A stretch of DNA of 64,000 nucleotides. Origin: an uncultured Actinomycetota bacterium (GTDB taxonomy: Bacteria > Actinomycetota > Actinomycetes > Actinomycetales > CAWJMD01). The DNA is taken from NCBI GenBank assembly GCA_963843835.1, contig CAWJMD010000008.1, positions 1,036,706 through 1,100,705 on the forward strand. Direction: 5' to 3'. The number at the start of each line of letters is the position of its first letter. The stretch's first letter is position 1. Shown one piece after another: positions 14,722 to 32,016 of the stretch. A model generated the notes under the pieces. It had not been told where the DNA came from. It ran no database searches and worked only from the letters and a program-made list of their open reading frames with translations. The translations under genes were made by a program, and so were the position numbers.

Positions 14722-14891
14722 GTTCGGCGCTGAACCTACCTCATGCCGAAGGCCCAGGACGCCACGCCGGGCGCGACGCACGGATCGCCACTCACCGTGG
14801 TCCCGGACGCGCTACCGTTACTCTCCGTAGCACCGCCAGGCTGGAGCGCAGACGCGTGACGGCGGCAGAGGGTGACCAGGAAGGGCGACAC

Positions 14892-15386
14892 ATGTCGGAC
14901 TACGGCAAGGCACTGGGGGCTCGGCTGCGCGCCGTGCGGGCGCAGCAGGGACTCTCCCTGCAGGGTGTCGAGCAGCGGTCCCAGGGGCAGTGGAAGGCCG
15001 TCGTCATCGGCTCCTACGAGCGCGGCGACCGCGCGGTCACCGTGCAGCGGCTGGCCGAGCTGGCCGAGTTCTACGGGGTGCCGATCGCGGCGCTGCTGCC
15101 CGAGTCACCGGCGTCCTCGGCCGAGGCGCCCCCGCCCAAGATCGTGCTCGACCTCGAGCACCTGGCCAAGATGCCGGTCGACCGGGCCGGCCCGCTGGTG
15201 CGCTACTGCACGACGATCCAGGAGCAGCGCGGCGAGCAGGACTCGAGCTCGCTGTCGATCCGCGCCGAGGACCTGCGCACGCTCGCGGTGATCTACGACA
15301 TCCCGGCGCTGGAGCTCGCGGACGAGCTGATCCGCTGGGGCGTGCTCGACGCGGACGCGCGGCGCGCCATCACGCCCACCACCTGA
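14892..15386 (+). CDS. bldD: BldD-family HTH (XRE-type) developmental regulator
   Basis: 164 aa from the ATG at 14892: MSDYGKALGARLRAVRAQQGLSLQGVEQRS...GSYERGDRAVTVQRLAELAEFYGVP.... The C-domain is ...RYCTTIQEQRGEQDSSSLSIRAEDLRTLAVIYD...WGVLDADARRA. Divergent from pyrR, as bldD is in Streptomyces. Confidence 0.85.
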   Translation: MSDYGKALGARLRAVRAQQGLSLQGVEQRSQGQWKAVVIGSYERGDRAVTVQRLAELAEFYGVPIAALLPESPASSAEAPPPKIVLDLEHLAKMPVDRAGPLVRYCTTIQEQRGEQDSSSLSIRAEDLRTLAVIYDIPALELADELIRWGVLDADARRAITPTT

Positions 15387-18664: not shown

Positions 18665-18668
<4 letters not shown>

Positions 18669-19867
18669 TGGCCGCCCGATCGCATCTGCTCGGGGATCGC
18701 GGCCAGGTACGCCTCGGCGTTGCGCCGCGTCTCCGCGACCGAGTCGCCACCGAACTTCTCCAGCACGGCGTCGGCCAGCACCAGTGCGACCATCGCCTCG
18801 GCGACGACTCCCGCGGCGGGGACCGCGCACACGTCGGAGCGCTGGTTGATCGCCACGGCCTTCTCGCCCGTCGCGACGTCCACGGTGTCGAGGGCTCGCG
18901 GCACGGTGGAGATCGGCTTCATCGCCGCGCGCACGCGCAGCACCTCGCCCGTGCTCATGCCCCCCTCGGTGCCGCCGGCGCGACCGGTGCGCCGCCGGAT
19001 GACCCCGTCGGCCCCGGCCTCGATCTCGTCGTGGGCCGCCGATCCGCGACGCGCGGCGGTGAGGAACCCGTCGCCGATCTCGACCCCCTTGATCGCCTGG
19101 ACGCCCATCAGGGCGCCTGCCAGCCGGGAGTCGAGCCGCCGGTCCCAGTGGACGTGGGAACCGAGGCCGGGTGGGAGACCGTAGGCGAGGACCTCGACGA
19201 CACCACCGAGCGTGTCGCCCTCGGTGCGCGCGGCGTCGACCTCGGAGACCATCGCCGCCGAGGTGGCTCCGTCGTGGCACCGCATCGGGTCGGCGTCGAG
19301 CGCCGCGAGGTCGTCGGGGCCTGGCAGCGCCGCGTCGAGGGGCACCGCGACCGGGCCGATGGACACGGTGTGGCTCACGAGCCTCGCGCCCACGGCCTGC
19401 TCGAGGAACGCGGCGGCCACCGCGCCGAGGGCCACCCGCGCCGCCGTCTCACGGGCGCTCGCACGCTCCAGGACGGGTCGTGCGTCGTCGAACCCGTACT
19501 TCTGCATCCCCACCAGGTCGGCGTGACCCGGCCGCGGCCTGGTCAGGGCGGCGTTGCGGGCCTGCCGGCCCAGGACCTCGGGGTCGACGGGGTCGGCCGA
19601 CATCACCGTCTCCCACTTGGGCCACTCGGTGTTCCCCACCTGGATCGCGACGGGTCCCCCCTGGCTCACGCCGTGCCTGACCCCACCGAGGATGGCCACC
19701 TCGTCGGCCTCGAACTTCATCCGCGCCCCTCGGCCGTAGCCGAGGCGACGGCGCGCGAGGGAGGTCCTCAGGTCGTCGGTGGTGACCTCGACGCCGGCGG
19801 GCAGCCCGTCGAGAACCCCTGTCAGCGCAGGGCCGTGCGATTCACCTGCAGTGAGCCAGCGCAGCAT
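18665..19867 (-). CDS. aroC: Chorismate synthase
   Basis: 400 aa: [25 protein letters not shown]...[14 protein letters not shown]...RPGHADL.... Confidence 0.96.
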
Positions 19868-19970: not shown

Positions 19971-20786
19971 TCAGCCGGTGTACTGCCAGAGCAGGACGGT
20001 CTCGCCGAGCGCCACCGTGTACACGGCGTCACCCATCTGGATCGTCACGCCGTCGAGGACGCCGTCGGCGTCCGCGTCCGCGCCCTTGGCCGTGTACTCG
20101 ACCCATGAGCCGGGCGCAGTGGTACCGAGGAACTCGCCCACCGGGAGGTCGGCGACGTCGAACTGCTGCGTATCACTGCGGAGGGTGAAGTCCGCCTCGC
20201 CTGAGACGGCGTCCCCTCCGACCAGCGTGAGGGTGGCGAGCTGCGGGGTCTTGCCGTCCTTGCCGTCCCTGCCGTTGCGCCCGTCCCTGCCGTTGGTGCC
20301 GTCGACACCATCCTTGCCGTCGGTGCCCGGGAGGACGGCGAGTGACCCGCCACCAGCTCCGCCGGTGTAGGCGGAGGAACCGGTGCTGACGGGGGCGGAC
20401 GTGGCTGCGGGCGTCGATGCCGGTGCGGCACCCTCCCCGCCCTCGACCACCAGCGCCGCGAAGGGGTTGCGGCCGTTGAACTCGGTGAGAGTCGGCAGCG
20501 GCGTGGGCGCCTGGGTCGGCGTCGCAACCGGCGAGTCGGACGGGGCGGAACTGGGCGGCGGGGCCGCGACGACATCGTCGACGCTGCTGCCCGACTGGCT
20601 GAAGAAGTACAGGCCGGTACCCACGGCCGCGAGGGCCGCGACCCCGACGAGGCCGATCAGCACGGGTGTCTTCACGGACGAGGTCGCGGGAGCCCCCGGT
20701 CCCGGCGATGAGGGTCCTGCGGCGGAAGAGGACTCCGACGAGGGCGAGGCGAACGGGTTCGGCGTTCCGAACGGGCTGGTGGTCAT
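19971..20786 (-). CDS. PilP-like pilus alignment protein with Pro-rich linker and collagen-type GXY stalk
   Basis: 271 aa with AGGAGA 9 nt upstream of the ATG. Single TM helix PVLIGLVGVAALAAVGTGLYFF, a TEFNGRNPF motif, nine Gly-X-Y triplets and a beta-rich C-domain. Directly follows pilO. Confidence 0.6.
   Translation of the reverse strand: MTTSPFGTPNPFASPSSESSSAAGPSSPGPGAPATSSVKTPVLIGLVGVAALAAVGTGLYFFSQSGSSVDDVVAAPPPSSAPSDSPVATPTQAPTPLPTLTEFNGRNPFAALVVEGGEGAAPASTPAATSAPVSTGSSAYTGGAGGGSLAVLPGTDGKDGVDGTNGRDGRNGRDGKDGKTPQLATLTLVGGDAVSGEADFTLRSDTQQFDVADLPVGEFLGTTAPGSWVEYTAKGADADADGVLDGVTIQMGDAVYTVALGETVLLWQYTG
20247..20327 (-). repeat. Coding 9-bp-periodic repeat that encodes nine collagen-like Gly-X-Y triplets
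   Basis: Protein residues 154-180 are GTD GKD GVD GTN GRD GRN GRD GKD GKT. The plus strand reads cttgccgtc cttgccgtc cctgccgtt gcgcccgtc cctgccgtt ggtgccgtc.... Confidence 0.85.
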
Positions 20787-20811
20787 GGCGTCACGTCTCC
20801 TGGTCGCCGTG

Positions 20812-21555
20812 TCAGTTGGTCGTGGTGTCGACGACGCCGGGTCCGGCGTTGGGCACGGTCACGCCGGGTGCCGCGGACGAAGGGTCCGACACCGGCTTGA
20901 GCACGAAGACGCTTCCGGTGATCGTCATGGTGACGTCGCCGTTCGCGACCGCCGGCTTTCCGCCCTGGGCAGCCTTGGCCTGCTCCTCGGCCACCACGTT
21001 CAGCCCCTGCACGAGGTAGTCCCGCGACAGGGCGGTCTGGACGGCCTTGAGGAAGAGCTTGGCGTTGTAGAAGTTCCCGACCACGACGACGTCCACGGGA
21101 ACCGCCGCGAGCGTGTCCCCACTCGGAGCCGCCACCGGGGCAGCTGCCTCACCCTCGGCGGGGACGGCGGCGGGATCGGGCTGCGGCGCAGGGGCGCCCT
21201 CACCGGCCAGTGCGATGGCCACCGATGGCGTCACCGACATCAGCGTCACACCGTTGGCGGCAGCCTGGGCGTCCAGCTCGCGCACCAGCGTGGGGATCTC
21301 GGGCGACTCCGGCATCGCCTTCTTCACGGCGGCGAGCTCGGCTTGGCGCTGGGGGAGCTCCGCGAACTGCGACTTGAGCTCCTCGATCTCCAGCGTCAGT
21401 GCGGCGTTGGAGGCCTCGGTCGCCGTCGTCTGGTCACGGAGCTCCGCGGCCTCGGCGCGCTTGGGGCCGATCAGCAGCAGCCATGAGGCCACGACGGCCA
21501 GCACGCAGACCGCCGCGGTCGCGGCGACCCACAGCGTGGTCTTCGACAGGGACAT
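20812..21555 (-). CDS. pilO: Type IV pilus assembly protein PilO
   Basis: 247 aa. N-terminal TM helix (LWVAATAAVCVLAVVASWLLL), a coiled-coil (AELRDQTTATEASNAALTLEIEELKSQFAELPQRQAELA), then a ferredoxin-like C-domain. Sits after pilN. Confidence 0.8.
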   Translation of the reverse strand: MSLSKTTLWVAATAAVCVLAVVASWLLLIGPKRAEAAELRDQTTATEASNAALTLEIEELKSQFAELPQRQAELAAVKKAMPESPEIPTLVRELDAQAAANGVTLMSVTPSVAIALAGEGAPAPQPDPAAVPAEGEAAAPVAAPSGDTLAAVPVDVVVVGNFYNAKLFLKAVQTALSRDYLVQGLNVVAEEQAKAAQGGKPAVANGDVTMTITGSVFVLKPVSDPSSAAPGVTVPNAGPGVVDTTTN

Positions 21556-21556
21556 C

Positions 21557-22264
21557 TCAGCCGGCCTCTCGTTCGTAGCGGTTCGACAGGGCGTCGGACG
21601 TCACGACCGCCTGGGTGGTGAAGTCGACGATGACGGTGCCGTCGATCTGGTTTCGCTCCGACTGGCTCAACGACGGGTCGGCGAACCCCTCGGTCCCGGC
21701 GAGGACGTCGAGCCACGCGGACACATCGGAGTGCACCTTGCCGGTGCCGAGGACCGTGATGGTGCCGATACCGGACCGGGTCAGAGGGTCGGCCGGCAGT
21801 CCGGAGGCCGCAGCCGCGCCCGCGGGAGCCCCCACGGTGGCCGTGAGGTCGGTGATCCAGACGTCCTTCGGGTAGGTCAGGGCGAGGTCGTCCAGGTAGG
21901 GGCTCCAGAGGACGTCGGACGCCATGGCGGTCGAGCGGGCGTTCTGGGCCGACTCGACCTGCGCCAGGGTGCGCGGAACCTCGGCGTACTTGCTCGCCTC
22001 GGCATTGAGCGTCACGGTGCGCTTCTGCTCGGTCGCGAGGCCGTCGGCCGCCGAGTCGGCGCCCGCAGAAGCGAGCAGGTAGCCCGCCCCGACCGCGCCA
22101 AGCACTCCGACGACGACGAGCCCGAGGATGGCCTGGGTGCGACGGAGCTGACGCTCCTGCGCGATCTCCGGGGGAAGCAGGTTGACCCGCGGGACGGTGT
22201 ACCCCACGCCGAAGGCGCTACCGAGCTCGACTTCCTCGGTGGCCTTCTCGAAGTTGACGGTCAT
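21557..22264 (-). CDS. pilN: Type IV pilus assembly protein PilN
   Basis: 235 aa with an N-terminal VNLLPPEI motif (PilM-binding INLLP signature), followed by a TM helix (AILGLVVVGVLGAVGAGYLL). ATGA overlap with pilM. Confidence 0.85.
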   Translation of the reverse strand: MTVNFEKATEEVELGSAFGVGYTVPRVNLLPPEIAQERQLRRTQAILGLVVVGVLGAVGAGYLLASAGADSAADGLATEQKRTVTLNAEASKYAEVPRTLAQVESAQNARSTAMASDVLWSPYLDDLALTYPKDVWITDLTATVGAPAGAAAASGLPADPLTRSGIGTITVLGTGKVHSDVSAWLDVLAGTEGFADPSLSQSERNQIDGTVIVDFTTQAVVTSDALSNRYEREAG

Positions 22265-23310
22265 GACTGGGCTCCGAGTGCGAGACCCACCGGCACGGCG
22301 GCCAGGGGCTGGACGAGGGACAGCTGCTGCTCGCTGAGACCGGTCCGCCCGATGCTCATCGTCGACATCGGGTCACCGGCGATGACGTCGAGGCGGGTCG
22401 CCCCGCTGAGCCGCTCGGCCAGGCCCCGCAGGGTCGAGCCGCCGCCGGAGAGCACGAGCCGGCCGATGGGCCAGTCGGGGTTCGAGGCGGCGTAGTAGTC
22501 GAGGGAGCCCCGCACCTCGTCCACGAACGACTGCGCGGTGCCCTCCACGGCGCGTGCGGCGGTGGCGAGCTCGTCACCCGCACCGAGGAGCCCGAGCTGC
22601 TGCTTCAGCCCCTCGGCCTCACCCATCGGCACGCCCAGCCGCTCGGCGACCGAGTCGGTGATGTCCTGTCCACCCATCAGCAGGATGCGGACGAAGCGCG
22701 GCACCCCGGCCGAGTGGACGACGATGTTCGTGACGCGCGAGCCGATGTCGACGAGGGCCTCGGTCTCGACGTCGGCCGACACACGCGTGCCGATCGAGCG
22801 GAGGACCGCGAAGGAGGTCAGGTCGACCATCGTGGTCTGCAGTCCGGCCATCTGGACACAGCGCACGTTGGCCATCACGGTCTCGCGAGCCGCAGCGACC
22901 AGCAGGCCCCGCGTCTGCGCGACACCGTTGACCTGAACGGTCTCCAGCGGGTGGAAGTCGAGGACGGCCTGGTCGACCGGCATCGGCAGGTAGTCCTGCA
23001 CCTGGAAGGGCAGTGCCTTCTTCAGGTCCGCAGGCGGCATCGGGGGCAGGTCCACCTGCCGCACGACGACGCGCTGGTTCGCGACCCCGAGCACGACCTT
23101 CTTGTGGCTGAACTTGGTCGCTGACCACAGCTGCCTGATGGCAGCGGCCACGGTCGGCTGGTCAAGGACCTCGCCGTCGCGTACCGCACCCTCGGGAACG
23201 GCCACCTGACCGAACTTCTCGAGCGTCACTCCGCTCCTGCCGAACGACAGCTCGGCAGCTCGTACGCCTGAGGTCCCGATGTCGAGACCGATGGCGGTTC
23301 GTCCAGCCAC
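22261..23310 (-). CDS. pilM: Type IV pilus assembly ATPase-like protein PilM (actin fold)
   Basis: 349 aa from the GTG at 23310 (GGAAGGGGA upstream): AIGLDIGTSGVRAAEL...ALVDIGSRVTNIVV...LVLSGGGSTLRGLAERL.... Confidence 0.88.
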   Translation of the reverse strand: MAGRTAIGLDIGTSGVRAAELSFGRSGVTLEKFGQVAVPEGAVRDGEVLDQPTVAAAIRQLWSATKFSHKKVVLGVANQRVVVRQVDLPPMPPADLKKALPFQVQDYLPMPVDQAVLDFHPLETVQVNGVAQTRGLLVAAARETVMANVRCVQMAGLQTTMVDLTSFAVLRSIGTRVSADVETEALVDIGSRVTNIVVHSAGVPRFVRILLMGGQDITDSVAERLGVPMGEAEGLKQQLGLLGAGDELATAARAVEGTAQSFVDEVRGSLDYYAASNPDWPIGRLVLSGGGSTLRGLAERLSGATRLDVIAGDPMSTMSIGRTGLSEQQLSLVQPLAAVPVGLALGAQS

Positions 23311-23450
23311 GTCACGTCCCCTTCCGTCGCAGCCCACTTGGGCCGTCAGCCAGTCATCGGGGTGAATCTGCGCCGCCTTGAGCGGCACGGACGGACCAGT
23401 TGGGCCGGTCGAGTGAATCGCCCGTTCGGACTAGCGTCCGCTGGCGGACG

Positions 23451-24242
23451 TCACTGCCAGGACAGGCCGACGAGACCCAGGTACCAGTCGACGAGGTCGT
23501 CCCCGACGACGATCGCCGACGCGGCGCCGGCGAGCATGAAGGGACCGAAGGGGATCAACGACTTGCGGCCGGCCCGACGGACCACCATCAGCCCCGCGCC
23601 GACCAGCCCGCCGAGAAGGAACGCCAGGAAGGCGCCCAGCGGCACGAGCACCCAGCCGAGGAACCCCAGGTACATGCCGAGGACGCCGGCGAGCTTGACG
23701 TCCCCGAAGCCCATGCCCTTCGGGTAGATGAACATCACCACGAAGTAGAAGGCGTAGAGCGCCAGCCCGGCCAACAGCGTGCGCAGGAGCACAGCGGGCT
23801 CACCCTCCAGCAGCGCAGCCCCTCCGAGGAGGAGCGCCGCAACGGGGTAGCTCGGCAGCACGATCGCGTTCGGCAGCCGGTGCACGTCGAGGTCGATGAG
23901 GGCGAGAGCAACGCCCACGGCCGCCAGGTAGAGGAAGGCCGGGAGGTGCCAGACGGCGCCGAAGTACCACGCGGTGAGCCCGAAGAGGATCGCGGTGCCC
24001 AGCTCCACCGCCGGGTACCGAGGGCTGATCGGCTCGCCGCAGTCGCGGCAGCGACCGCGCAGGACGAGCCAGCTCAGCACCGGGACGTTGTCGACGGACC
24101 GGATCCCGACGCCGCACCGCGGGCATGCGCTCGGCGGGCTGACCACCGACTCGCCCCGCGGCACGCGCCAGACCACCACGTTGAGGAAGGACCCGATCGC
24201 CAGCCCGAGAAGGGTCGCGAAGCCGACGAGGAGTGGGGTCAC
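23451..24242 (-). CDS. pilD: Prepilin peptidase PilD (peptidase A24, with N-terminal Zn-finger/methyltransferase-type domain)
   Basis: 263 aa: ...GLAIGSFLNVVVWRVP...CPRCG...CRDCGEPI.... Two catalytic-Asp regions (...LALIDLDVHRLP... and ...GMGFGDVKLAGVLG...). Confidence 0.9.
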   Translation of the reverse strand: MTPLLVGFATLLGLAIGSFLNVVVWRVPRGESVVSPPSACPRCGVGIRSVDNVPVLSWLVLRGRCRDCGEPISPRYPAVELGTAILFGLTAWYFGAVWHLPAFLYLAAVGVALALIDLDVHRLPNAIVLPSYPVAALLLGGAALLEGEPAVLLRTLLAGLALYAFYFVVMFIYPKGMGFGDVKLAGVLGMYLGFLGWVLVPLGAFLAFLLGGLVGAGLMVVRRAGRKSLIPFGPFMLAGAASAIVVGDDLVDWYLGLVGLSWQ

Positions 24243-24262: not shown

Positions 24263-26041
24263 CTAGCTGTCCTCCTCGGAGAAGCTCGTGCTCGACCACG
24301 CGTCGTTCTGCAGCTCGAGGAACGAGGGCGGAGGGAGCGCGGTCAGACGCGTGTCGTAGTTGTAGTCCTTGTCGTACCCGGTGCCGCCGCTGGTTCCGAC
24401 CGGGCCCCGGAACTTCTGGACGATCACGCCGTTCACGGTGAGGTTGCCGAGGTTCGTCGATCCGGTGTTGTAGTTCTGCACCGTGAAGCTGTTGGCGACG
24501 GAGGCGATGGCGGCGTCGATCCGCACGTTCACCAGCTTCGTCGACTCGGTCGAGGGGTGGTAGACCTCGACGTTGTTCTGGCCGACGAGGCCCAGGACGT
24601 TCGTGCTCGAGAGCCCGCCGTCGTACACGGTGTTGCCGACCACGATCACGTCGTGGGCGCTCGCGACCGTGTACTTGCCCTTGACCGTTCCCTTGACGAA
24701 GACGTCGCCCCGCATGCAGTCGTAGGTGTCTCCCGTCCCGGTCGTGTACTCGGACACCGGCTCAGCCGAGCCGCATGCCGCTCGATAGTTGGGGTCGCTG
24801 GTCGACGCCGGGACGTCCTGCACGTAGATCACGCCGTTCGCGGGTCCGTTCACGACCGACGCGGTGCTCGGGCTACCGCCGATGCAGCCGGAGTTCGTCA
24901 CCTTCGTGTAGGGGCTCTTGACCTTGAGCTTGCCGCTGCTGAGGAACTCGATGGTGGTCGGGCCGGTGTAGAGGCACCCCGTCCCACCCAGAGAGGCGTC
25001 GGCGAGCCTTCGGATGTTGAGGTTGGTCGGCGGCATCTCGAGCCGCGGCGAGTACTTGGGGAGGTTCGTCAGCGGCGTGTAGGCGTTGTTGACCCAGAGC
25101 TTCGCCGGGTTGGGTGGGTTGCGCACCTGCCCCGTTGTCGCCCAGCTGGTGGTCGTGGGTCCCTTGAAGTTGACGTTGCCGTTGAGGGTCAGGGTGTCGT
25201 TGCTGTGCAGGGGTCCGTTGATCACGTCGCTGCCCGAGAAGTTGATCGTCAGGCAGTCGAAGTAGTACGTGTCCGAACCCCCGCCGCGGATACCGGAGGG
25301 GGGCGTGTCGGACGCCGAGAACCAGACCTCCGCCGTCTTCGTGCCGGACTCGCTCCACTGCACAGTGCGCGGGAACGTGGCACGTCCGTCGTAGTAGTAC
25401 ATCTCGCAGCCGCGGCGAACCTGGTCCGAGGTCGGACGCAGGAGGGTGTAGCTCGTGCTCTTCTTGGCGGCGAACGGGATGATGGAGCCGATGTTGCCGT
25501 TCGACGAGACGGTGAACGAGCGGTTGCCGAGGAACGACAGCTGCGCCGTGCTCACCGGGCTGAACGTCTCGTAGTTGGAGTAGTACAGGAACTTGAGGAA
25601 GGCCGTCTTCGTGAGGTCGGCCACGATCGTGCGCTTGACGCCGTTCACCCGGCCGGTCACCTGCAGACGCACAGCACCGGGTGTCACCGTCGACAGGGGG
25701 TTGGAGAGCACCTTCTGGGTGTACTGCGCGGTGTTGGTCCCCGTGGTACCCGGTACGGTCGCCCAGCCTGTCAGCGCCAGGTTCGGCGTCGAGTCGCCAC
25801 AGGGCACGTCCCAGTATGTGTCACAGGTGTTCAGCCGCGACACGTAGTCCTGAACACCCGCCTGCGCTGCTGCCAGTGCTGCACGGAAGTCCTGTCCTCG
25901 CCGACTCTGGGTCACGGTGTTGAGGGCGTAGCCCATCGACGCGAGCGCCAGACCCGAGACCAGCAGGAAGGCCAGCAGCACGGCCACCATCGTGTAGCCC
26001 TCGTCGTCGCCCCGTCGTGCCGTGAAGCGCTGAACCACCAT
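24263..26041 (-). CDS. Large PilX-like minor pilin / putative pilus-tip protein
   Basis: 592 aa from the ATG at 26041 (1-nt overlap with the upstream stop). PilX_N-like head: RRGDDEG|YTMVAVLLAFLLVSGLALASMGYALNTVTQSRRGQDFRAALAAAQAGVQDY, with no Glu at +5. The remaining ~530 aa are Asn/Thr/Ser/Tyr/Gly-rich, beta-type, with several Cys pairs. Confidence 0.7.
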   Translation of the reverse strand: MVVQRFTARRGDDEGYTMVAVLLAFLLVSGLALASMGYALNTVTQSRRGQDFRAALAAAQAGVQDYVSRLNTCDTYWDVPCGDSTPNLALTGWATVPGTTGTNTAQYTQKVLSNPLSTVTPGAVRLQVTGRVNGVKRTIVADLTKTAFLKFLYYSNYETFSPVSTAQLSFLGNRSFTVSSNGNIGSIIPFAAKKSTSYTLLRPTSDQVRRGCEMYYYDGRATFPRTVQWSESGTKTAEVWFSASDTPPSGIRGGGSDTYYFDCLTINFSGSDVINGPLHSNDTLTLNGNVNFKGPTTTSWATTGQVRNPPNPAKLWVNNAYTPLTNLPKYSPRLEMPPTNLNIRRLADASLGGTGCLYTGPTTIEFLSSGKLKVKSPYTKVTNSGCIGGSPSTASVVNGPANGVIYVQDVPASTSDPNYRAACGSAEPVSEYTTGTGDTYDCMRGDVFVKGTVKGKYTVASAHDVIVVGNTVYDGGLSSTNVLGLVGQNNVEVYHPSTESTKLVNVRIDAAIASVANSFTVQNYNTGSTNLGNLTVNGVIVQKFRGPVGTSGGTGYDKDYNYDTRLTALPPPSFLELQNDAWSSTSFSEEDS

Positions 26042-26799
26042 CAGTTGCTCCTTGAGGTGATGTTGATGAACGTGACTCGAGCCACCGTGGAAGGGTTCTT
26101 GGACGTGTCCTGCGTCCGAAGGGCCGCTGTCATCCAGATCTCCACGCTCTCGACCAGCGGGATGTCGCCCGCAGCGACGTTTCCGGAGCCGTCCACCGGG
26201 ACCGTGCTGACTGAGGAGCCGTCCGCGTTGAGTGTCGCGTCGGTGCGCTTGAGGTAGGTGAAGAACGAGTGCGGCGGCGTCGCGGAGAGTCCCCGGGCGA
26301 CCACCTGGCACGTGCGTGCTGCGCCGGGGCTCTGCGCGCCCGCGGGGAACGTGATGTTCGCGCCGACCAGCGTGCCCCGGTAGACCTGCTGGCACAGCTC
26401 GCGCTTGCCGTCCGCCGACGCCCGGGTCCACAGCCAGATGACCGAAGGCATCTGCGTCTGGGAGCCGGCGTTCGCGGCGGTCAGGTCGAGGGTGTCCAGC
26501 TTGGCGTAGAAGCCGATGCGCTGAGGCTCGGCGACGATGATGGCCGGGACGTTGCCGTCGTACGAGTCGGCGGTGCGCAGCTGCTTGGTCATCCGGTCGG
26601 CCGCGATGCGAAGCTCGTTGACGGCCTGGTTGCGCTGGTTGGCGGCGTCCGACGTCCGCGCCCCCGAGATCACCATCGCCGACACGCTCGCCAGCAGGAG
26701 CGTGCTGATCACCATGCCGACGAGGAGCTCGACGACGCTCATGCCGCGGTCGTCGGCGCGCCAGCCGGCACGCACCAGCCGGGCGATCCGGCGGGTCAC
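26041..26799 (-). CDS. PilW-like minor pilin (prepilin-type N-terminal cleavage/methylation domain)
   Basis: 252 aa from the GTG at 26799 (GTGA overlap). Leader ...WRADDRG|MSVVELLVGMVISTLLLASVSAMV with Glu at +5. Confidence 0.75.
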   Translation of the reverse strand: MTRRIARLVRAGWRADDRGMSVVELLVGMVISTLLLASVSAMVISGARTSDAANQRNQAVNELRIAADRMTKQLRTADSYDGNVPAIIVAEPQRIGFYAKLDTLDLTAANAGSQTQMPSVIWLWTRASADGKRELCQQVYRGTLVGANITFPAGAQSPGAARTCQVVARGLSATPPHSFFTYLKRTDATLNADGSSVSTVPVDGSGNVAAGDIPLVESVEIWMTAALRTQDTSKNPSTVARVTFINITSRSN

Positions 26800-28106
26800 C
26801 AGTTCACCGTCGCCGAGGCGGTGCGAGACGTGTCGCTCACGGTGAAGGTCTCGGTCTTGGAGGTCGGCGTACCCGAGACGGTGACCGTCACCGTGGCGTT
26901 CCACGTGCCGTACGGGACCTGCACGGCGAAGTCAGTGCCTCCACCGTTGAGCAGGACCAGGTTCTCGGCGACCAGGAGCGAGTCGCCGCCGGAGCAGAGG
27001 GCGTCCGCGGCCCGTTCGAGGGTGACCGTCGCAGTGCTGACCGGACCCCCACCGGACTTCTTCACCTTGAGGTTCACTCCCCCGACGGGGAGGTTGACGG
27101 GGGTGGTACCCCCGGGGGTCGGGGAGACCGACACCTTCCCCCCCGACGCGGGCAGGCAGCGACCCGCCGACAACCCGTACCCGGCCCCGGCCCAGGGGAA
27201 CACCGGCGACATGGCACCACTCGGCAGGAGGCACCCGGACGTCACCACCGGACTGCAGTACGGGTTGAACACCGTCTGCCCCAGGAGGCTGCGCTCGACC
27301 TGCACGCCGTGGCCCGAGATCGGGAGCTGGTAGCCACCACCGGGCGGGGACCACGCCATCGTCAAGGCGGACGCCTGGTCGTACATGAGGCTGGCCGGCT
27401 TCGCGATGCGCCCCGCGACGACGGTCGCAGCCGTCGTCGACACGCTCTGCGCGTTGGTGATGCCGACGTAGCCGATCGTGTCGACCGAGGCGCTGTAGGT
27501 ACCGGGGGCGAGGCTCGTGAAGACCGCGCACCCGTTCTTGTCACTCACGGCGGTCGCGCCCGTCGGACTGAGGGTGACGTTGATGCCCTGCAGGGCAACG
27601 GAGTTGCGGTCGACGACGGGCACCGCGAAGGCACCGAGGTTCCCGTTCACCTGGCCGATGGGCACGGCGAGGACCGTGTCGCTCTGGACCGGGGTGACCG
27701 ATCCCATCCTGGGCCATGTCACCAGGACGGAGATCTTCTTGTAGGCCAGGCGCGCGCCGTCGGGGGCGCTGCAGCTGCTGGTGGTCGACGTACCGGGCAG
27801 GAGGGAGATCGTGCGGGTGACCGTGAAGGCGTCGCCGTTGACGGACAAGGGCGTGGCGACCGTGCCGGGAAGCAGCGCGTCGTACCCGAGACCGAGGCTC
27901 ACCTCCTTCTCGCGCTCAGCCAGGTTCGCGGCGGTTGCTCGCATCCTCCCCTCGCCGGTGAGGGCGAGCGTGCGGATCAGCACCCCGCCCGCCGCAGCCG
28001 CGACGAGGGCGAGGACGACGAGCGACGCCAGCACCTCGACGATCGTGAAGCCGTCCTCGTTGCCTGCCAGCTCGCGGCCGTGGCGTCGACGCAAGGCGCT
28101 CAGCAC
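26796..28106 (-). CDS. PilV-like minor pilin with extra Ig/CarboxypepD_reg-like beta domains
   Basis: 436 aa from the GTG at 28106 (GGGAG upstream). Leader ...LAGNEDG|FTIVEVLASLVVLALVAAAAGGVL with Glu at +5. The internal segment VVDRNSVALQGINVTLSPTGATAVSDKNGCAVFTSLAPGTYSASV resembles carboxypeptidase-regulatory-like folds. Confidence 0.72.
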   Translation of the reverse strand: MLSALRRRHGRELAGNEDGFTIVEVLASLVVLALVAAAAGGVLIRTLALTGEGRMRATAANLAEREKEVSLGLGYDALLPGTVATPLSVNGDAFTVTRTISLLPGTSTTSSCSAPDGARLAYKKISVLVTWPRMGSVTPVQSDTVLAVPIGQVNGNLGAFAVPVVDRNSVALQGINVTLSPTGATAVSDKNGCAVFTSLAPGTYSASVDTIGYVGITNAQSVSTTAATVVAGRIAKPASLMYDQASALTMAWSPPGGGYQLPISGHGVQVERSLLGQTVFNPYCSPVVTSGCLLPSGAMSPVFPWAGAGYGLSAGRCLPASGGKVSVSPTPGGTTPVNLPVGGVNLKVKKSGGGPVSTATVTLERAADALCSGGDSLLVAENLVLLNGGGTDFAVQVPYGTWNATVTVTVSGTPTSKTETFTVSDTSRTASATVNW

Positions 28107-28265
28107 GATGGGTCTCCCGGAAGTCGGTCCGTGGGCTCCAGTGCGGGCCCTCGGGTTGGTATCGGCGGTGGCGCCGCGTCCTTGAGGCGTGAGGTGGGCC
28201 CATCCGGGAGCGGGTCCCTGTTTCCCTCTAACGGGTGCGCGCCATGCGGGATCCGAGCAACGGAA

Positions 28266-28292
28266 CGCCCCCCGGCCATCGGCCGGGGGGCG
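28266..28292 (-). terminator. Strong hairpin downstream of the major pilin gene
   Basis: CGCCCCCCGGCC-atc-GGCCGGGGGGCG, a 12-bp all-GC perfect stem, 22 nt after the pilin stop at 28315. Confidence 0.65.
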
Positions 28293-28314
28293 CTCGGTCA
28301 CTGCTCTCAGATCA

Positions 28315-28725
28315 TCACGGGGTGGCGGTCAGCACACCGGCTGCGCAGGTGCCCTTCTTGACACCAGCGTCGGCGCTGCTGGCGGCCCACTTGTCGCCCG
28401 ACTTCGACGTCACCTGCACGCAGTACGCGTTCTTGGCGGCGTTCACCGTGTAGGTGTGACCCGTCGCGGTCGAGCTGACCTTGTACTCGGACGCAGCGAG
28501 GGCGGCCGGGTACTCCTGGGTGTCGGTGAAGTTCGTCTCGACCGCGATCTGCATGTTGCGCGCGTCGGACTTGGCCTGGCCGTCGTAGCCCTTGTTGCGC
28601 TGGTTCAGGAAGGTCGGGATCGCGATGGCCGCGAGGATGCCGATGATGACGATGACGACGAGGAGCTCGATCAGGGTGAAGCCCTGGTCCTTCTCCTCCA
28701 TGGACTTACGGATGCGAGCGAGCAT
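28315..28725 (-). CDS. pilA: Type IV major pilin (paralog 1)
   Basis: 136 aa. Class III signal peptide MLARIRKSMEEKDQG|FTLIELLVVIVIIGILAAIAIPTFLNQ. C-terminal Cys pair (..YCVQV...KKGTCAAG) forms a disulfide loop. Has its own 212-bp upstream region and its own terminator. Confidence 0.9.
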   Translation of the reverse strand: MLARIRKSMEEKDQGFTLIELLVVIVIIGILAAIAIPTFLNQRNKGYDGQAKSDARNMQIAVETNFTDTQEYPAALAASEYKVSSTATGHTYTVNAAKNAYCVQVTSKSGDKWAASSADAGVKKGTCAAGVLTATP

Positions 28726-28882
28726 GTGCGCTCCCCTTCGATTCGGTCTCGGTGAGCCGCCCGCTGCAGGGTCTCCGGCTCGATGACTCCTGAGATATCG
28801 GGCTCGCCCGGAGGCACCTTGAGATCTGGGGTGAAGATTCTCGGTCGCCCTGCTCCGATCGAGCGACGCCGCTCACAGATGC

Positions 28883-28914
28883 GTGAGGGCCTGCCGCGGA
28901 CGGCAGGCCCTCAC
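28883..28914 (-). terminator. Hairpin downstream of pilin paralog 2
   Basis: GTGAGGGCCTGCCG-cgga-CGGCAGGCCCTCAC, a 14-bp perfect stem, 24 nt after the stop at 28938. Confidence 0.65.
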
Positions 28915-28937
28915 GATGCTGCGCACACTCGACGGGA

Positions 28938-29330
28938 CTACCCCGTCGGGTTGCTGCATGCACCCGGTGCGGTCGCGACCCCGGCGGCACCACTGGTCGC
29001 CTTCCAGACGGCGCCGGACCGTGACCGGACCGACACGCAGTACGACGAGCTCGAGCCGAAGTAGACAGCGGGACTGGTGGTCTCGGACTTCAGGTAGGTC
29101 GGGATGCTCCCGGTCGGCGGATAGCCCTGGACCTCGTGGAACTCGGCCTCGATCGCCGTCTGGAGGTTGCGGGCGTCGCTCTTCGCCTGGGCGTCGAACC
29201 CCTCGTCGCGTTGTGCCAGGTACGCGGGGATCGCGATCGCCGCGAGTACGCCGATGATCGACACGACCACGAGCAGCTCGATCAGCGTGAAGCCACGCTC
29301 GGCAGCACGCGTGCGGGATGCGATGCGCAT
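28938..29330 (-). CDS. Type IV pilin (paralog 2)
   Basis: 130 aa from the ATG at 29330 (GGAGAG upstream): MRIASRTRAAERG|FTLIELLVVVSIIGVLAAIAIPAYLAQRDEGFDAQAKSDARNLQ.... C-terminal Cys pair (..YCVSV...PGACSNP). The listed ORF start at 29375 would give an atypically long leader. Confidence 0.85.
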   Translation of the reverse strand: MRIASRTRAAERGFTLIELLVVVSIIGVLAAIAIPAYLAQRDEGFDAQAKSDARNLQTAIEAEFHEVQGYPPTGSIPTYLKSETTSPAVYFGSSSSYCVSVRSRSGAVWKATSGAAGVATAPGACSNPTG

Positions 29331-29371
29331 GGTTCGGTCACTCTCCGTCGCGGGACGTTGTGGCGCCCCGG

Positions 29372-30595
29372 TCACTGGATCAGGTCGAAGACCTTGAAGA
29401 TGGGCATGTAGAGGGCGATGATCATCGACCCGATCATGGCGCCGAGCACGGCGATCATCAGCGGCTCGATCAGGCTCGTCAGCGCCTCGGTGGTCGACTC
29501 GACCTCCTGGTCGTAGAAGTCTGCAAGCTTGCCGAGCATCGTGTCCATCGCGCCGGTGTCCTCACCCACGGCGAGCATCTGCACCATCATCGCCGGGAAG
29601 ACCTTGTGGTCGGCCAGGGGGCCGGCCAACGAGTCGCCCTTGCGGACGCTCTCCTGGACGTCCCTCGCGGCACGCTCGAGAACGAGGTTGCCGCTGGTCT
29701 CGCCGACGATCTCGAGGCTCTGCAGGATCGGGACCCCTGAACGGATCATCGTCCCGAGGTTGCGTGCGAAGCGGGCCAGGGCGACCTTCGCGAACAGGTT
29801 GCCGAAGACGGGGATCTTCAGCTTCATCGGGTCGATGACGCTGCGCACCTTGTGCTGGTGCTTGACCCGGCCCCACACCACGGAGAAGGCGACGAGCAGC
29901 ACGAGGCCGATCGGTGCGGCGACCTTCATCACGCCGCTGAGGAAGACGAGCGCCTTCGTCGGAGCGGGGAGCTCGCCTCCAAGGCTGTCGAACATGCCTG
30001 CGAAGACGGGCACGATGAAGAGGAGCATGCCGACCACGGCGATGATCGCCATCACGAAGACGACGACCGGGTAGGTCATCGCCGACTTGATCTTGCTGCG
30101 GAGCTTGACCTCGGCCTCGAAGTTCTCGGCCACCGACAGCAGGGTCGTGTCGAGGAAGCCGCCGACCTCGCCCGCCCGGCACATGTTGATCATGATCGGC
30201 GGGAAGACGCGTGGGAACTTCGCGAGCGAGTTCGACAGCGAGCCACCGGACTCCACCTCGTTGCGCACCGAGGTCAGGGCCTCCTTCAGCCCCTTGCTCT
30301 CGGTCTGCTCGGCCAGGATCGAGAGCGAGCGCAGCATCGACAGACCCGAGTTGATCATCGTGGCGAACTGTCGCGACATGACCGCGAGGTCCTTGAGCTT
30401 GACGCGGTTGCTGCCCGGGAGGGTGATCTCCTTGCTCATGCCGGAGCCCTGCTCGCGCACCGACATCGGCGCGTAGCCCATGTGCTTCAGCTTGGTGACG
30501 AGCGCCGCCTCGTTGGGGGCGTCGAGCTTGCCGGTGACGAGCTTGCCCGAGCGGTCGCGGACGGAGTACTCGTAGGTCTTGGTGGCGGTTGCCAT
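29372..30595 (-). CDS. pilC: Type IV pilus platform protein PilC (T2SS F family)
   Basis: 407 aa from the ATG at 30595 (GAGGGAG upstream). Two T2SSF repeats and three TM segments: ...FATMINSGLSMLRSL... / ...NLGTMIRSGVPILQSL.... Confidence 0.9.
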   Translation of the reverse strand: MATATKTYEYSVRDRSGKLVTGKLDAPNEAALVTKLKHMGYAPMSVREQGSGMSKEITLPGSNRVKLKDLAVMSRQFATMINSGLSMLRSLSILAEQTESKGLKEALTSVRNEVESGGSLSNSLAKFPRVFPPIMINMCRAGEVGGFLDTTLLSVAENFEAEVKLRSKIKSAMTYPVVVFVMAIIAVVGMLLFIVPVFAGMFDSLGGELPAPTKALVFLSGVMKVAAPIGLVLLVAFSVVWGRVKHQHKVRSVIDPMKLKIPVFGNLFAKVALARFARNLGTMIRSGVPILQSLEIVGETSGNLVLERAARDVQESVRKGDSLAGPLADHKVFPAMMVQMLAVGEDTGAMDTMLGKLADFYDQEVESTTEALTSLIEPLMIAVLGAMIGSMIIALYMPIFKVFDLIQ

Positions 30596-30606
30596 CGTGC
30601 GCTCCC

Positions 30607-31890
30607 TCAGGCCCGGCCGGTCAGGCGGTTGAAGTCCTCGACGTGGTGGCACTTCTCGAGGCCCTGCTCGTAGCTGATGCGGTTCGTTCGCACGAGATCG
30701 GCCAGGTGCTGGTCCATCGTGTGCATGCCGTGCTGCGCCCCGGCCTGCATGGCCGAGTAGATCTGGTGGGTCTTGCCCTCGCGGATGAGGTTGCGCACCG
30801 CGGCGGTCGCCTGCAGGACCTCGGTGGCGACGACCCGCCCGCGCCCGTCCGCCGTCTTGCACAGCGTCTGGCAGACGACACCCTGCAGCGAGCCGGCGAG
30901 CATGACGCGGACCTGCTGCTGCTGCTCGGGCGGGAAGACGTCGATCACGCGGTCGATGGTCTGCGCCGCGTCCTGCGTGTGCAGGGTCGCGAACACGAGG
31001 TGCCCGGTCTCAGCGGCGGTCAGGGCCACCGAGATGGTCTCGAGGTCACGCATCTCGCCGACCAGGATGATGTCGGGGTCCTGGCGCAGGACGTGCTTCA
31101 GCGCGTTGGCGAAGGACTTGGTGTCCTCCCCCACCTCTCGCTGGTTGATCAGGCAGCTCTTGTGACGGTGCAGGAACTCGATGGGGTCCTCGACCGTCAT
31201 GATGTGGCCGTGCCGGGTGCGGTTGGCCAGGTCGATGAGGGACGCCAGCGTCGTCGACTTGCCGGAGCCGGTCGGGCCGGTGACCAGGACCATGCCGCGG
31301 GGCAGGCCGGCGAAGTTGCTGACGGTCGGCGGGATGCCGAGGTCCTCCAGCGGCTTGATCTCGTAGGGGATCACCCGGAACGCGGCGCCGATGGACTCAC
31401 GCTGGCGGTAGATGTTGACGCGGAACCGCGAGCGGCCCGGCAGGGAGTAGGCGAGGTCGAGCTCGAGCTCGGACTCGAACTTCTCGCGCTGCTTCTGGGT
31501 GAGGATCGCGTAGATCACGCGCTGCAGCGCCATCCGCTCCATGATCGGCTGCTCGTCCAGGGGCTGGAGCTCTCCACGGAGGCGCAGCATCGGGTGCGCC
31601 CCGCTGCTGAGGTGGAGGTCGGAGGCGCCCCGCTCGAGCATCTCTATCAGCAGGTCGCTGAGGACGAAGTCGCCCTCCTCGACCTGCGCCTCGGTCGTCT
31701 GGCGGCCCAGCACCTGCGGCTTCTTGGCCGTCGCGACCCCCGGTGGGGGCTGCGTCGGCGGGAGGGGTGCGGTCGCCGCGTGCGCGCCGGGGGGCGCCGT
31801 CGTCGAGGCGGTGGGGGCGGTCGGGGTGTCGCCGCGGAAGGCGAACGCCTCCGGCGAGTAGCCCTGCTGGTTCGGCTGGCCGCTGCTCAC
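30607..31890 (-). CDS. pilT: Type IV pilus retraction ATPase PilT with Pro/Thr/Ala-rich N-terminal extension
   Basis: Walker A GPTGSGKSTT, Asp box, Walker B ILVGEMRD, and a PilT-specific AAVRNLIREGK helix. Start assigned to the GTG at 31890 (GAGGGGAG 5 nt upstream). Codons from 31891 to 32001 are rich in AGA/AGG/TCA/CGA and look non-coding. Confidence 0.85.
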   Translation of the reverse strand: MSSGQPNQQGYSPEAFAFRGDTPTAPTASTTAPPGAHAATAPLPPTQPPPGVATAKKPQVLGRQTTEAQVEEGDFVLSDLLIEMLERGASDLHLSSGAHPMLRLRGELQPLDEQPIMERMALQRVIYAILTQKQREKFESELELDLAYSLPGRSRFRVNIYRQRESIGAAFRVIPYEIKPLEDLGIPPTVSNFAGLPRGMVLVTGPTGSGKSTTLASLIDLANRTRHGHIMTVEDPIEFLHRHKSCLINQREVGEDTKSFANALKHVLRQDPDIILVGEMRDLETISVALTAAETGHLVFATLHTQDAAQTIDRVIDVFPPEQQQQVRVMLAGSLQGVVCQTLCKTADGRGRVVATEVLQATAAVRNLIREGKTHQIYSAMQAGAQHGMHTMDQHLADLVRTNRISYEQGLEKCHHVEDFNRLTGRA

Positions 31891-32016
31891 GGCGCTCCCC
31901 TCATCGGTTGTCCTGTCGTACACGCCTCGTCGAGGTCTGCTGGCTCTCCTGCTCATCGGCCCGTCCAGGCCCACCCTTGAGGCGTCGTGTGAGAGCGCCA
32001 CGAGCGCTACCGTGCG

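Follow-up and report, generated by a model that had tools for sequence, protein, structure and literature searches.

Gene X, as it is called here, is the last gene of a complete type IVa pilus (T4aP) cluster on the minus strand of a 64,000-nucleotide stretch of DNA from an uncultured Actinomycetota bacterium (contig CAWJMD010000008.1, G+C content 72%), referred to below as the window. The cluster contains, in this order, pilB, a gene for a pilT-like ATPase, pilC, four genes with pilin motifs, a large open reading frame (ORF), pilD, pilM, pilN, pilO and gene X (19971-20786). We propose, with confidence a little short of even, that gene X encodes an undescribed fourth component of the T4aP alignment complex (PilM-PilN-PilO-X) in a clade of monoderm Actinomycetota, a connector of the PilP/GspC type equipped with a rod. 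The protein is analogous, and perhaps remotely related, to PilP and GspC. The new feature is that the position of a PilP/GspC-type connector appears to be occupied by a protein which combines a new domain with an inserted, probably trimeric rod; the function is suggested by inference from sequence.

The sections of gene X and its protein are listed below. A1 and A5 denote full family alignments, A4 is the alignment of the C-terminal domain (C-domain) and A7 is a two-sequence alignment of PilP. AF2 denotes AlphaFold2, and pLDDT is its predicted local distance difference test score.

19971..20786, minus strand: gene X, whole ORF; ATG start, 271 amino acid residues and a stop codon; fourth in the pilM-pilN-pilO unit
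20797..20801, minus strand: ribosome-binding site AGGAG of gene X, 9 nucleotides 5' of the ATG, by reading of the sequence
20751..20786, minus strand: conserved N-terminal motif MTTSPFGTPNPF, residues 1-12, predicted cytoplasmic
20601..20663, minus strand: single transmembrane helix, residues about 42-62 (Kyte-Doolittle maximum 2.1, windows starting at 41-44)
20499..20600, minus strand: Pro/Ser/Ala-rich low-complexity tether, residues 63-96 (sequence; AF2 pLDDT <50)
20436..20498, minus strand: most conserved extracytoplasmic motif LPTLTEFNGRNPFAALVVEGG, residues 97-117 (alignments A1 and A5)
20328..20435, minus strand: second linker, rich in Ala, Ser, Thr and Gly, residues 118-153 (sequence; AF2 pLDDT <50)
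20247-20327, minus strand: collagen-like tract (GXY)9, residues 154-180, with the triplets GTD GKD GVD GTN GRD GRN GRD GKD GKT (sequence)
19974..20246, minus strand: C-terminal beta domain, residues 181-271 (AF2 model)
20052..20078, minus strand: DADADGVLD loop, residues 237-245, which fits the DxDxDG calcium-binding pattern

The initial annotation had described a 271-residue protein following pilO, with a Ser/Pro-rich N-terminus, one transmembrane helix, a linker rich in Pro and a motif. The ORF and its hydropathy agree with this layout: the N-terminus is rich in Ser and Pro, and the motif LPTLTEFNGRNPF occupies residues 97-109, after the Pro-rich linker.

It is important to consider first how gene X is distributed. 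A word-indexed search of 5.8 billion proteins gave five clear orthologues with 33-68% identity. A sixth member, P0007, was present in the same list and identified as family later, and the remaining matches were to the collagen tract only. In a genome scan gene X was found only in metagenome-assembled genomes of uncultured Actinomycetota, and a metagenome scan with a narrower alignment gave two loci. Distant loci were reached through PilO, by reading the contexts of PilO relatives whose identity falls from 64% to 26%; the distant members are missed by HMMER because the protein is mostly of low complexity and the C-domains diverge fast. The order pilD-pilM-pilN-pilO-X-aroC was found in all 14 related loci read, with one extra gene before aroC in Quadrisphaera. 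The loci include two cultured hosts, Thalassiella azotivora and Quadrisphaera sp., and the lineage is therefore placed near Kineosporiales.

Gene X always lies about 10-30 nucleotides behind pilO or overlaps it, and in the loci read it never occurs apart from pilO. Its occurrence after pilO in 14 of 14 related loci is in accord with the association with pilMNO assumed in the initial annotation. In the window, the gap between the pilO stop and the gene X start is 25 nucleotides. This gap, together with the ribosome-binding site of its own, fits an operon arrangement of the two genes. The G+C content at third codon positions is 0.88 in gene X, similar to the neighbouring genes.

The fact that gene X is always behind pilO, across PilO identities of 26-64%, bears directly on a different explanation, namely that the gene does not belong to the pilus machine at all and merely lies between the pil cluster and aroC. 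Its product would then be a membrane-anchored, collagen-like protein of the surface or wall, such as an adhesin or an organiser of the wall, or be similar to FliL. Most collagen-like proteins of bacteria are adhesins on the surface, and weak matches to SclA, SclB and Lcl were obtained; homology to pilus protein families is not detectable, and one orthologue, WP_461024222.1, bears the FliL name at NCBI. This explanation is very unlikely in our judgement, given the constant position behind pilO, an exhaustive search with the C-domain profile which gave only these orthologues and weak repeat matches, and the lack of a wall-sorting signal.

All members share a common plan. An xxNPFG-type motif is followed by Lys/Arg residues, a transmembrane helix, acidic residues and a Pro-rich tether, and after the tether by (G/S/A)(R/K)(N/D)P(F/W), a low-complexity linker and a small beta domain. 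At the N-terminus, residues M1-P9 (MTTSPFGTP) are invariant in the alignment of the six closest members. Distant members retain the xxNPFG motif as MSQNPFA, MSTNPFGTP, MSEFNPFGA or MSSNTFGTPNPFG, and the most distant, P0126, is without it. The N-terminal MTTSPFGTP (NPF) can be regarded as a second NPF-type motif, on the predicted opposite side of the membrane from RNPF. As this predicted cytoplasmic N-terminus is strictly conserved, a cytoplasmic partner is implied.

Lys or Arg residues precede the transmembrane helix and acidic residues follow it, and this charge pattern is conserved in the family alignment. The positive-inside pattern in all members points to a topology with the N-terminus inside and the C-terminus outside. 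A reading of the N-terminus as a Tat or Sec signal peptide was rejected. The twin arginine is not conserved (Lys-Thr in the window protein), and the conserved 40-residue n-region and the hydrophobic stretch of 21 residues also speak against it. The protein contains no Cys; therefore it has no lipobox and is not a lipoprotein. No LPXTG or other wall-sorting signal is present in it. The AF2 model of the full-length chain has a mean pLDDT of 42 and was set aside, its Foldseek matches being meaningless.

The nine triplets of the collagen-like tract reported at 20247-20327 were found again as residues 154-180, and the 9-bp periodicity claimed for the DNA was recovered by Tandem Repeats Finder, which gave arrays of period 9, 18 and 27 at 20252-20327 with 72-80% matches. 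The repeat units are thus imperfect, and the tract is therefore not a product of recent slippage. Nine consecutive G-x-x units were reached in only 1 of 200,000 composition-preserving shuffles of the protein, and the next longest such run in the six-frame translation of the window has six units. The run is beyond chance. The NCBIfam SclB repeat region matches the window protein with E 8e-4, and two relatives pass the Pfam Collagen cut-off of 27.2 bits (L009 with 28.6 bits and L010 with 29.3 bits).

The segment bounded by the second linker and the beta domain was compared in 18 family members, which were classed by the form of the rod. Eleven have a GXY run only (8-15 triplets), two have a coiled coil, two have a coil-collagen-coil arrangement and three or four are without a rod. 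The forms are as follows.

GXY run only, number of triplets: window 9; P0002 10; P0003 10; P0004 13; P0006 11; L006 11; L007 10; Thalassiella 10; L009 15; L010 13; Quadrisphaera 8
Heptad-repeat form without GXY: P0005 and the L018 protein, with two helical blocks (about 21-28 residues)
Coiled coil-(GXY)18-20-coiled coil: P0007/L014 and the L013 protein
Rod-less: the L011, L012 and L016 proteins; probably L017 (sequence gap)

In the rod of P0005, Pfam gives coiled-coil families only (FlxA, ATG16, DivIC). The 13 members with GXY have 8-20 triplets and not a single break in the Gly register, while their X and Y residues are wholly different, ranging from the GKD/GRD type to the GPA/GPT type. The tract always ends directly, as G-x-T/S-P, at the folded domain. 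The initial annotation had left open that the tract might be lost or frame-disrupted in orthologues; it was found to be in frame throughout the collagen-bearing clade and dispensable in the wider family. The strict Gly register, the flanking coils and the replacement by a coiled coil together indicate an oligomerising rod and not a slippage product or a floppy linker. The rod is probably an oligomeric spacer, trimeric by the nature of collagen.

The lengths of the rods can be estimated. The rise per residue is 0.286 nm in collagen and about 0.15 nm in a coiled coil. The window rod would be about 7.7 nm long if triple-helical, the collagen-only rods of the family are calculated at 6.9-12.9 nm, and the (GXY)18 of P0007 at 15.4 nm. 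By our own count, the coiled coils with two blocks would be about 7 nm long. Thus collagen rods and two-block coiled-coil rods would roughly agree in length.

An alternative interpretation is that the GXY tract is an extended, charged linker, flexible or similar to polyproline II, within a monomer, the periodicity being tolerated repeat drift. This would fit with the small size of the tract (27 residues only), with the absence of Pro from X and Y in the window protein and its score below the Pfam Collagen cut-off, with the existence of rod-less relatives and with the low complexity of the surrounding sequence. We consider it unlikely. An unbroken Gly register kept in 13 members despite divergent X and Y residues is a signature of selection for a triple helix. 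In addition, coils flank the tract (P0007, L013) or replace it (P0005, L018), and the adjoining folded domain could nucleate a trimer.

One further observation concerns L007 (4138-6621), where the orthologue of gene X is frameshifted after the collagen tract, and pilN and pilO form one ORF of 474 residues. These frame disruptions most likely come from long-read assembly errors and hence are no biological evidence.

The C-terminal domain of about 90 residues, described as beta-rich in the initial annotation, is indeed predicted to be so. The AF2 model of residues 180-271 (92 residues, alignment A4) is all-beta with seven strands, a pLDDT of 92.4 and a predicted template modelling score (pTM) of 0.83. 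The model represents a confidently predicted fold which appears to have no structural neighbour in the PDB or in BFVD, the viral fold library, where Foldseek gave no match. It is also not a C1q/TNF jelly-roll, for which no Foldseek match was found. The expectation that the domain might resemble the homology region (HR) fold of PilP and GspC was not borne out, since neither protein is among the top 50 Foldseek matches.

Comparison of the window-subfamily C-domain by hhalign gave a probability of 96.6% with the L006 protein, 75.5% with the collagen-less L011 protein (E 2.4e-5, colinear over 66 columns) and 73.6% with P0007. The C-domain, judged from these profiles, is homologous between collagen-bearing and collagen-less members. 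Across the family it ends in (L/M)GD..(Y/F).(L/V)..GE. An exhaustive search with the C-domain hidden Markov model (HMM) in 1.84 billion cluster representatives returned the same few orthologues and two fragments.

Most collagen-bearing members keep the DADADGVLD loop, which is inserted when compared with the rod-less L011 protein. A 6-bp DNA repeat at 20063-20082 corresponds to it. Calcium binding by this loop is suggested by the motif only, and the loop may stabilise the rod assembly. It probably also explains the weak matches of the C-domain HMM to cadherin-like repeats. The matches to cadherin- or immunoglobulin (Ig)-like repeat proteins were not taken for homology: each score adds up 3-11 weak repeats, the proteins share the DxDxDG/beta-strand pattern, and the C-domain model is not Ig- or cadherin-like by Foldseek.

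The relationship with PilP requires a careful comparison. PilP contacts PilN and PilO through a long unstructured N-terminus and the N0 domain of PilQ through its HR domain (PMC5285504), and this HR domain is a seven-strand sandwich (PMC3169554). For the comparison, a PilP profile of 36 non-redundant sequences was used; the P. aeruginosa and N. meningitidis PilP sequences were verified against the PDB. In gene X, residues R106, N107, P108 and F109 are nearly invariant throughout the family (alignments A1 and A5). The connection between R-(D/N)-P-F and PilP, which had been made in the initial annotation, is borne out by PilP sequences. RSPFQ is found in 108 and RNPFQ in 2 of the 120 PilP homologues listed (110 of 120 together, mostly from Pseudomonas), and M. 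xanthus PilP carries KRDPF. The spacing is also similar, with the P. aeruginosa motif about 44 residues past the lipid anchor and R106 of gene X 44 residues past the end of the transmembrane helix. In the best local alignment that hhalign gave between the family and the PilP profile, RNPF is set on the PilP segment 'lrSPfQ', with E 0.29, which is not significant.

Some weak matches were obtained with relatives of the window protein. The rod-less L011 protein matches TIGR03021 (pilP_fam) at E 0.03, below threshold, and NF041515 (GspC_delta) at E 1.3e-3 with 18.5 bits against a cut-off of 150, in a Pro/Ala-rich low-complexity stretch. P0126 matches PF04351 at E 0.17, also below threshold. By hhalign P0126 reaches 20-26% probability with the PilP profile (12-26% for its type) at E about 1e-3, over the core 'AxVxVxGxxYxVxxGDxf', and the P0126/L017 type reaches 63% with the L011 C-domain. 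This similarity chain from the window protein through L011 and P0126/L017 to PilP suggests remote common ancestry, its last link being below accepted thresholds. Sequence matches of rod-less relatives in the PDB were rejected as they are of low complexity only, to the AMIN linker of PilQ, and the family profile search of PDB sequences found nothing.

These similarities raise the question whether gene X is a true, highly diverged orthologue of PilP or of the GspC HR domain, in which a transmembrane helix replaced the lipid anchor, the HR beta-sandwich persists in a form no longer recognisable, a non-secretin partner is embedded in the wall and collagen was inserted in the tether as a lineage-specific feature. 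The position after pilO is that of pilP, RNPF and its spacing match PilP, the seven predicted strands match the seven-strand PilP sandwich (PMC3169554), and the weak chain of 75%, 63% and 12-26% is accompanied by sub-threshold matches to GspC_delta, pilP_fam and PF04351 in relatives. We regard such orthology as improbable. The direct tests of the window protein are all negative (HMM, hhalign <=1.5%, Foldseek TM-score <=0.37), the last link of the chain is below threshold, and the GspC_delta match falls in a low-complexity stretch. The PilP-like character proposed in the initial annotation therefore stands as far as gene position, motif and spacing are concerned, and fails by HMM, hhalign and Foldseek and by the lack of a lipobox. 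It is plausible that the gene X protein works like PilP or GspC. It is not fileable as a member of PilP on the present evidence.

The preferred proposal, a fourth alignment component with a trimeric rod, has to be weighed against several results which do not favour it. The window protein has no match to PF04351 or TIGR03021 at E<=1, and PF04351 does not match any of the six closest members at E<=10. With the 36-sequence PilP profile hhalign gave 0.2% for A5, 0.2% for A1, 1.5% for A4 and 0.3% for the merged C-domains, and with alignment A7 it gave 1.1% for A4 and 0.06% for A5, these negative results being limited by the shallowness of the PilP profile (effective number of sequences about 2.5), since the homologues are mostly from Pseudomonas. 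The best Foldseek match of the C-domain model in the PDB has E 0.29, the TM-scores do not exceed 0.37, and PilP and GspC are absent from the top 50. The RNPF motif is merely four residues long. As for the rod, Pfam Collagen (PF01391) scores 15.0 bits in the window protein, below the cut-off of 27.2; hence of the two families named in the initial annotation PilP gives no match, and Collagen is below its cut-off here and above it in L009 and L010. Nine triplets without hydroxyproline would form an isolated triple helix of only marginal stability. The rod is absent in three or four members and so is not essential to the core function of the family. Finally, a rod of about 8 nm is too short by itself for the thick actinobacterial wall. 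The rigid, wall-spanning oligomeric spacer suggested in the initial annotation thus gains indirect support as to oligomerisation, through the coiled coils which flank or replace the tract in relatives, and none as to spanning the wall alone.

The proposed arrangement may be described in steps. Gene X is conserved with pilMNO as one unit, co-transcribed with them judging by the operon arrangement, and its protein is predicted to be bitopic, with the N-terminus inside, the C-terminus outside and a conserved cytoplasmic N-terminal motif. The disordered tether with GRNPF would dock on the extracytoplasmic PilN/PilO dimers, by analogy with the N-terminus of PilP. Three chains would join through (GXY)9 into a triple helix of about 8 nm, as module swapping in the relatives suggests, and the C-terminal beta domain, or the flanking coils in relatives, probably nucleates the trimer. 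A coiled coil or coil-collagen-coil may do the job of the rod in relatives. Each machine could contain several trimers; their number would be four, for instance, with a PilN/PilO stoichiometry of 1:1 and a ring that is 12-fold like that of M. xanthus, which is our own extrapolation. More speculatively, the beta domains might be kept by the rods inside the wall, at a constant distance of about 8 nm past the tether. They might then make up a pilus guide or anchor one, or they might bind to peptidoglycan or to the fibre, and such a guide might functionally replace the ring of PilP-HR and PilQ-N0 of diderms. That the T4aP machine in a clade of monoderm Actinomycetota possesses, in place of the periplasmic and outer-membrane assembly of PilP and PilQ, a wall-facing superstructure of interchangeable collagen or coiled-coil trimeric rods, tethered to PilN/PilO by RNPF and capped by beta domains of a new fold, is possible, and we place it on the doubtful side.

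The absence of a secretin, noted in the initial annotation, was confirmed for the 64-kb window and the syntenic loci, in which no secretin gene was found; this is the scope of the check. According to a review from 2019, PilP is logically absent from monoderms, and only Tad-type pili have been studied in Actinobacteria (PMC6916266). A search of the available literature found nothing linking collagen-like sequences with alignment proteins of type IV pili (T4P), nor a PilP-like protein in monoderms, in agreement with the earlier remark that a T4P alignment protein with a collagen-like module is not known to have been described.

The question touched here is how T4P are assembled and guided through a thick monoderm wall without secretin or PilP. 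Actinobacterial T4aP clusters do hold a conserved fourth protein of alignment type, and one clade has added a rod of defined length. For the outward-facing part of the monoderm machine, which has been missing so far, the gene X family is a concrete candidate that can be tested in two cultured hosts, and nature has already varied the rod (none, 8-20 triplets, coiled coil) in a way that lends itself to the study of spacer function. The family further adds an unusual bacterial collagen, very short and in a functional setting that is new, together with a small beta domain without a structural neighbour. If the wall-facing superstructure described above exists, no collagen triple helix would have been found before as a building element of a nanomachine that spans the bacterial envelope, nor would any earlier Gram-positive T4aP system have had a component dedicated to traversing the wall.

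The other genes of the pilus cluster and the adjoining aroC are located as follows.

20812..21555, minus strand: pilO (PF04350, E 2.1e-8, 34.9 bits)
21557..22264, minus strand: pilN, with VNLLPPE N-terminal motif (PF05137, E 7.2e-9)
22261..23388, minus strand: pilM (TIGR01175, E 2.5e-60; PF11104, E 2.5e-48)
23451..24242, minus strand: pilD, prepilin peptidase (PF06750, E 6.6e-35; PF01478, E 2.7e-12)
24263..33693, minus strand: remainder of the T4aP cluster (Pfam scan, as for the next five lines)
24263 to about 25900-26431, minus strand: large ORF directly 5' of pilD, without Pfam family match
26041-26904, 26796-28301, 28315-28725 and 28938-29375, minus strand: pilins with N_methyl motifs
29372-30862, minus strand: pilC, start uncertain
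30607-32001, minus strand: pilT-like ATPase
32017-33693, minus strand: pilB
18665..19867, minus strand: aroC, chorismate synthase (ORF translation; PF01264 on syntenic genes)

The true start of pilM is probably downstream of the listed GTG. The aroC gene starts about 100 nucleotides downstream of gene X and closes the pilus cluster. A scan for promoters and terminators around gene X gave no promoter-like site, and the sole terminator-like stem near it sits inside the ORF and is not above the shuffle background. An Rfam scan of the window gave no match.

Within the region 13076-36000 (minus strand), the T4aP cluster from pilB to gene X is inserted between aroE/mltG and aroC, where it splits the conserved actinobacterial block aroE ... 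aroC-aroK-aroB-aroQ-efp-nusB ... pyrR-pyrB-pyrC-carAB. Every related locus shows the same insertion point, including those in which PilO identity falls to 26%. The other genes of the window are housekeeping genes: carAB, pyrBC, pyrR, a gene for a BldD-like regulator, nusB, efp, aroQBKC, aroE, mltG and alaS, and further an MMPL transporter, an ABC ATPase, aspS, hisS, relA and secDF. The BldD-like developmental regulator is placed between nusB and pyrR (14856-15386, plus strand); this ORF encodes a helix-turn-helix protein, and the syntenic gene in L001 carries PF21179, BldD-like_C.

Some features of the neighbouring pilus genes are also of interest. PilO contains an Ala/Pro/Glu-rich insertion, GEGAPAPQPDPAAVPAEGEAAAPVAAPSGD, at residues about 105-145, in the middle of its extracytoplasmic domain, and because of it the Pfam match is limited to the N-terminal half of the window PilO. 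At the position of the large ORF 5' of pilD, the loci L002, L003 and L010 have a Ricin-B-lectin protein. The first gene of L003, two genes further upstream, has weak matches to Big_9/cadherin-like repeats and to N_methyl. These findings point to an adhesin module of the pilus that varies between loci. The ORF 26796-28301 (minus strand) encodes a pilin-like protein of 501 residues with an N_methyl motif, an unusually large minor pilin, and has sub-threshold matches to beta-sandwiches of the carboxypeptidase-regulatory/prealbumin-like (SpaA) type.

Two observations were made on gene X at other loci. In P0127, from an ENA contig of 49.8 kb and in the 90% cluster of P0003, a call of 510 residues joins PilO and the gene X protein in frame. 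This fusion may have arisen artificially, by a frameshift or in the assembly; comparable fusions of PilO with PilP have been cited as evidence for 1:1 stoichiometry (PMC3169554). In Quadrisphaera sp. the extra gene between gene X and aroC (L015 4663-5649) encodes 328 residues, in which PENPDS is repeated eight times and the C-terminus forms an LPYTG-hydrophobic-RRRR tail, which is a wall-anchor signal of the sortase type. The window contains no such gene.

It remains to compare the gene X protein with known systems. The orthologue from Thalassiella azotivora (WP_461024222.1, L008 4791-5636) is named 'flagellar basal body-associated FliL family protein' by NCBI. Like FliL, the protein crosses the membrane once, and its cytoplasmic part at the N-terminus is short. 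The periplasmic domain of FliL is not matched, and the neighbourhood read consists of pilus and not flagellar genes. The matches of relatives to NF004285, NF005435 and NF009420 reach 12-16 bits against cut-offs of 131-197 and cover the transmembrane and N-terminal region only, and the window protein matches no FliL model. FliL was thus rejected, and the name of the Thalassiella orthologue is probably a misannotation.

Collagen-like trimers such as Scl1 and Scl2, BclA, Lcl, phage tail fibres, and the collectins and C1q share with gene X an uninterrupted GXY tract and an adjoining globular domain. The number of triplets varies between orthologues, and the charged GKD/GRD triplets are as in Scl2; in S. 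pyogenes, Scl2 is triple-helical and contains GKD-rich triplets. The coiled-coil necks of P0007 and L013 resemble those of collectins and scavenger receptors. The differences are in the number of triplets, nine against tens to more than 70, in the anchor, an N-terminal transmembrane helix instead of LPXTG or the exosporium, and in the setting, a pilus-machine operon instead of a stand-alone adhesin.

PilP (PF04351, TIGR03021; PDB codes 2IVW, 2LC4 and 3JC8) is, like gene X, encoded directly after pilO. Both have a membrane anchor, a long disordered tether with R-(S/D/N)-P-F about 44 residues from the anchor, and a small C-terminal all-beta domain of about seven strands. By analogy, binding to PilN/PilO and an outward-facing domain would be expected for gene X. 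The proteins differ in that gene X matches PilP neither by HMM, profile nor fold and has no secretin gene nearby. Its transmembrane helix, after a conserved N-terminus of 40 residues, stands in place of the lipobox Cys of PilP, and its conserved cytoplasmic N-terminal motif has no counterpart there. A collagen-like rod is located between its tether and its beta domain.

The order of sections in GspC is a short cytoplasmic N-terminus, a transmembrane helix, a linker rich in Pro, a beta (HR) domain and an optional coiled coil (PMC3169554). The window protein matches no GspC model, contains no PDZ domain and has no significant similarity to GspC in sequence or fold. Gene X is nevertheless similar to GspC of the type II secretion system in its cytoplasmic N-terminus, single transmembrane helix, Pro-rich linker and beta domain. 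GspC differs in binding the N0 domain of the secretin GspD and in the placement of its additional module: in GspC a coiled coil or PDZ domain comes after the HR domain, while in gene X the rod comes before the beta domain.

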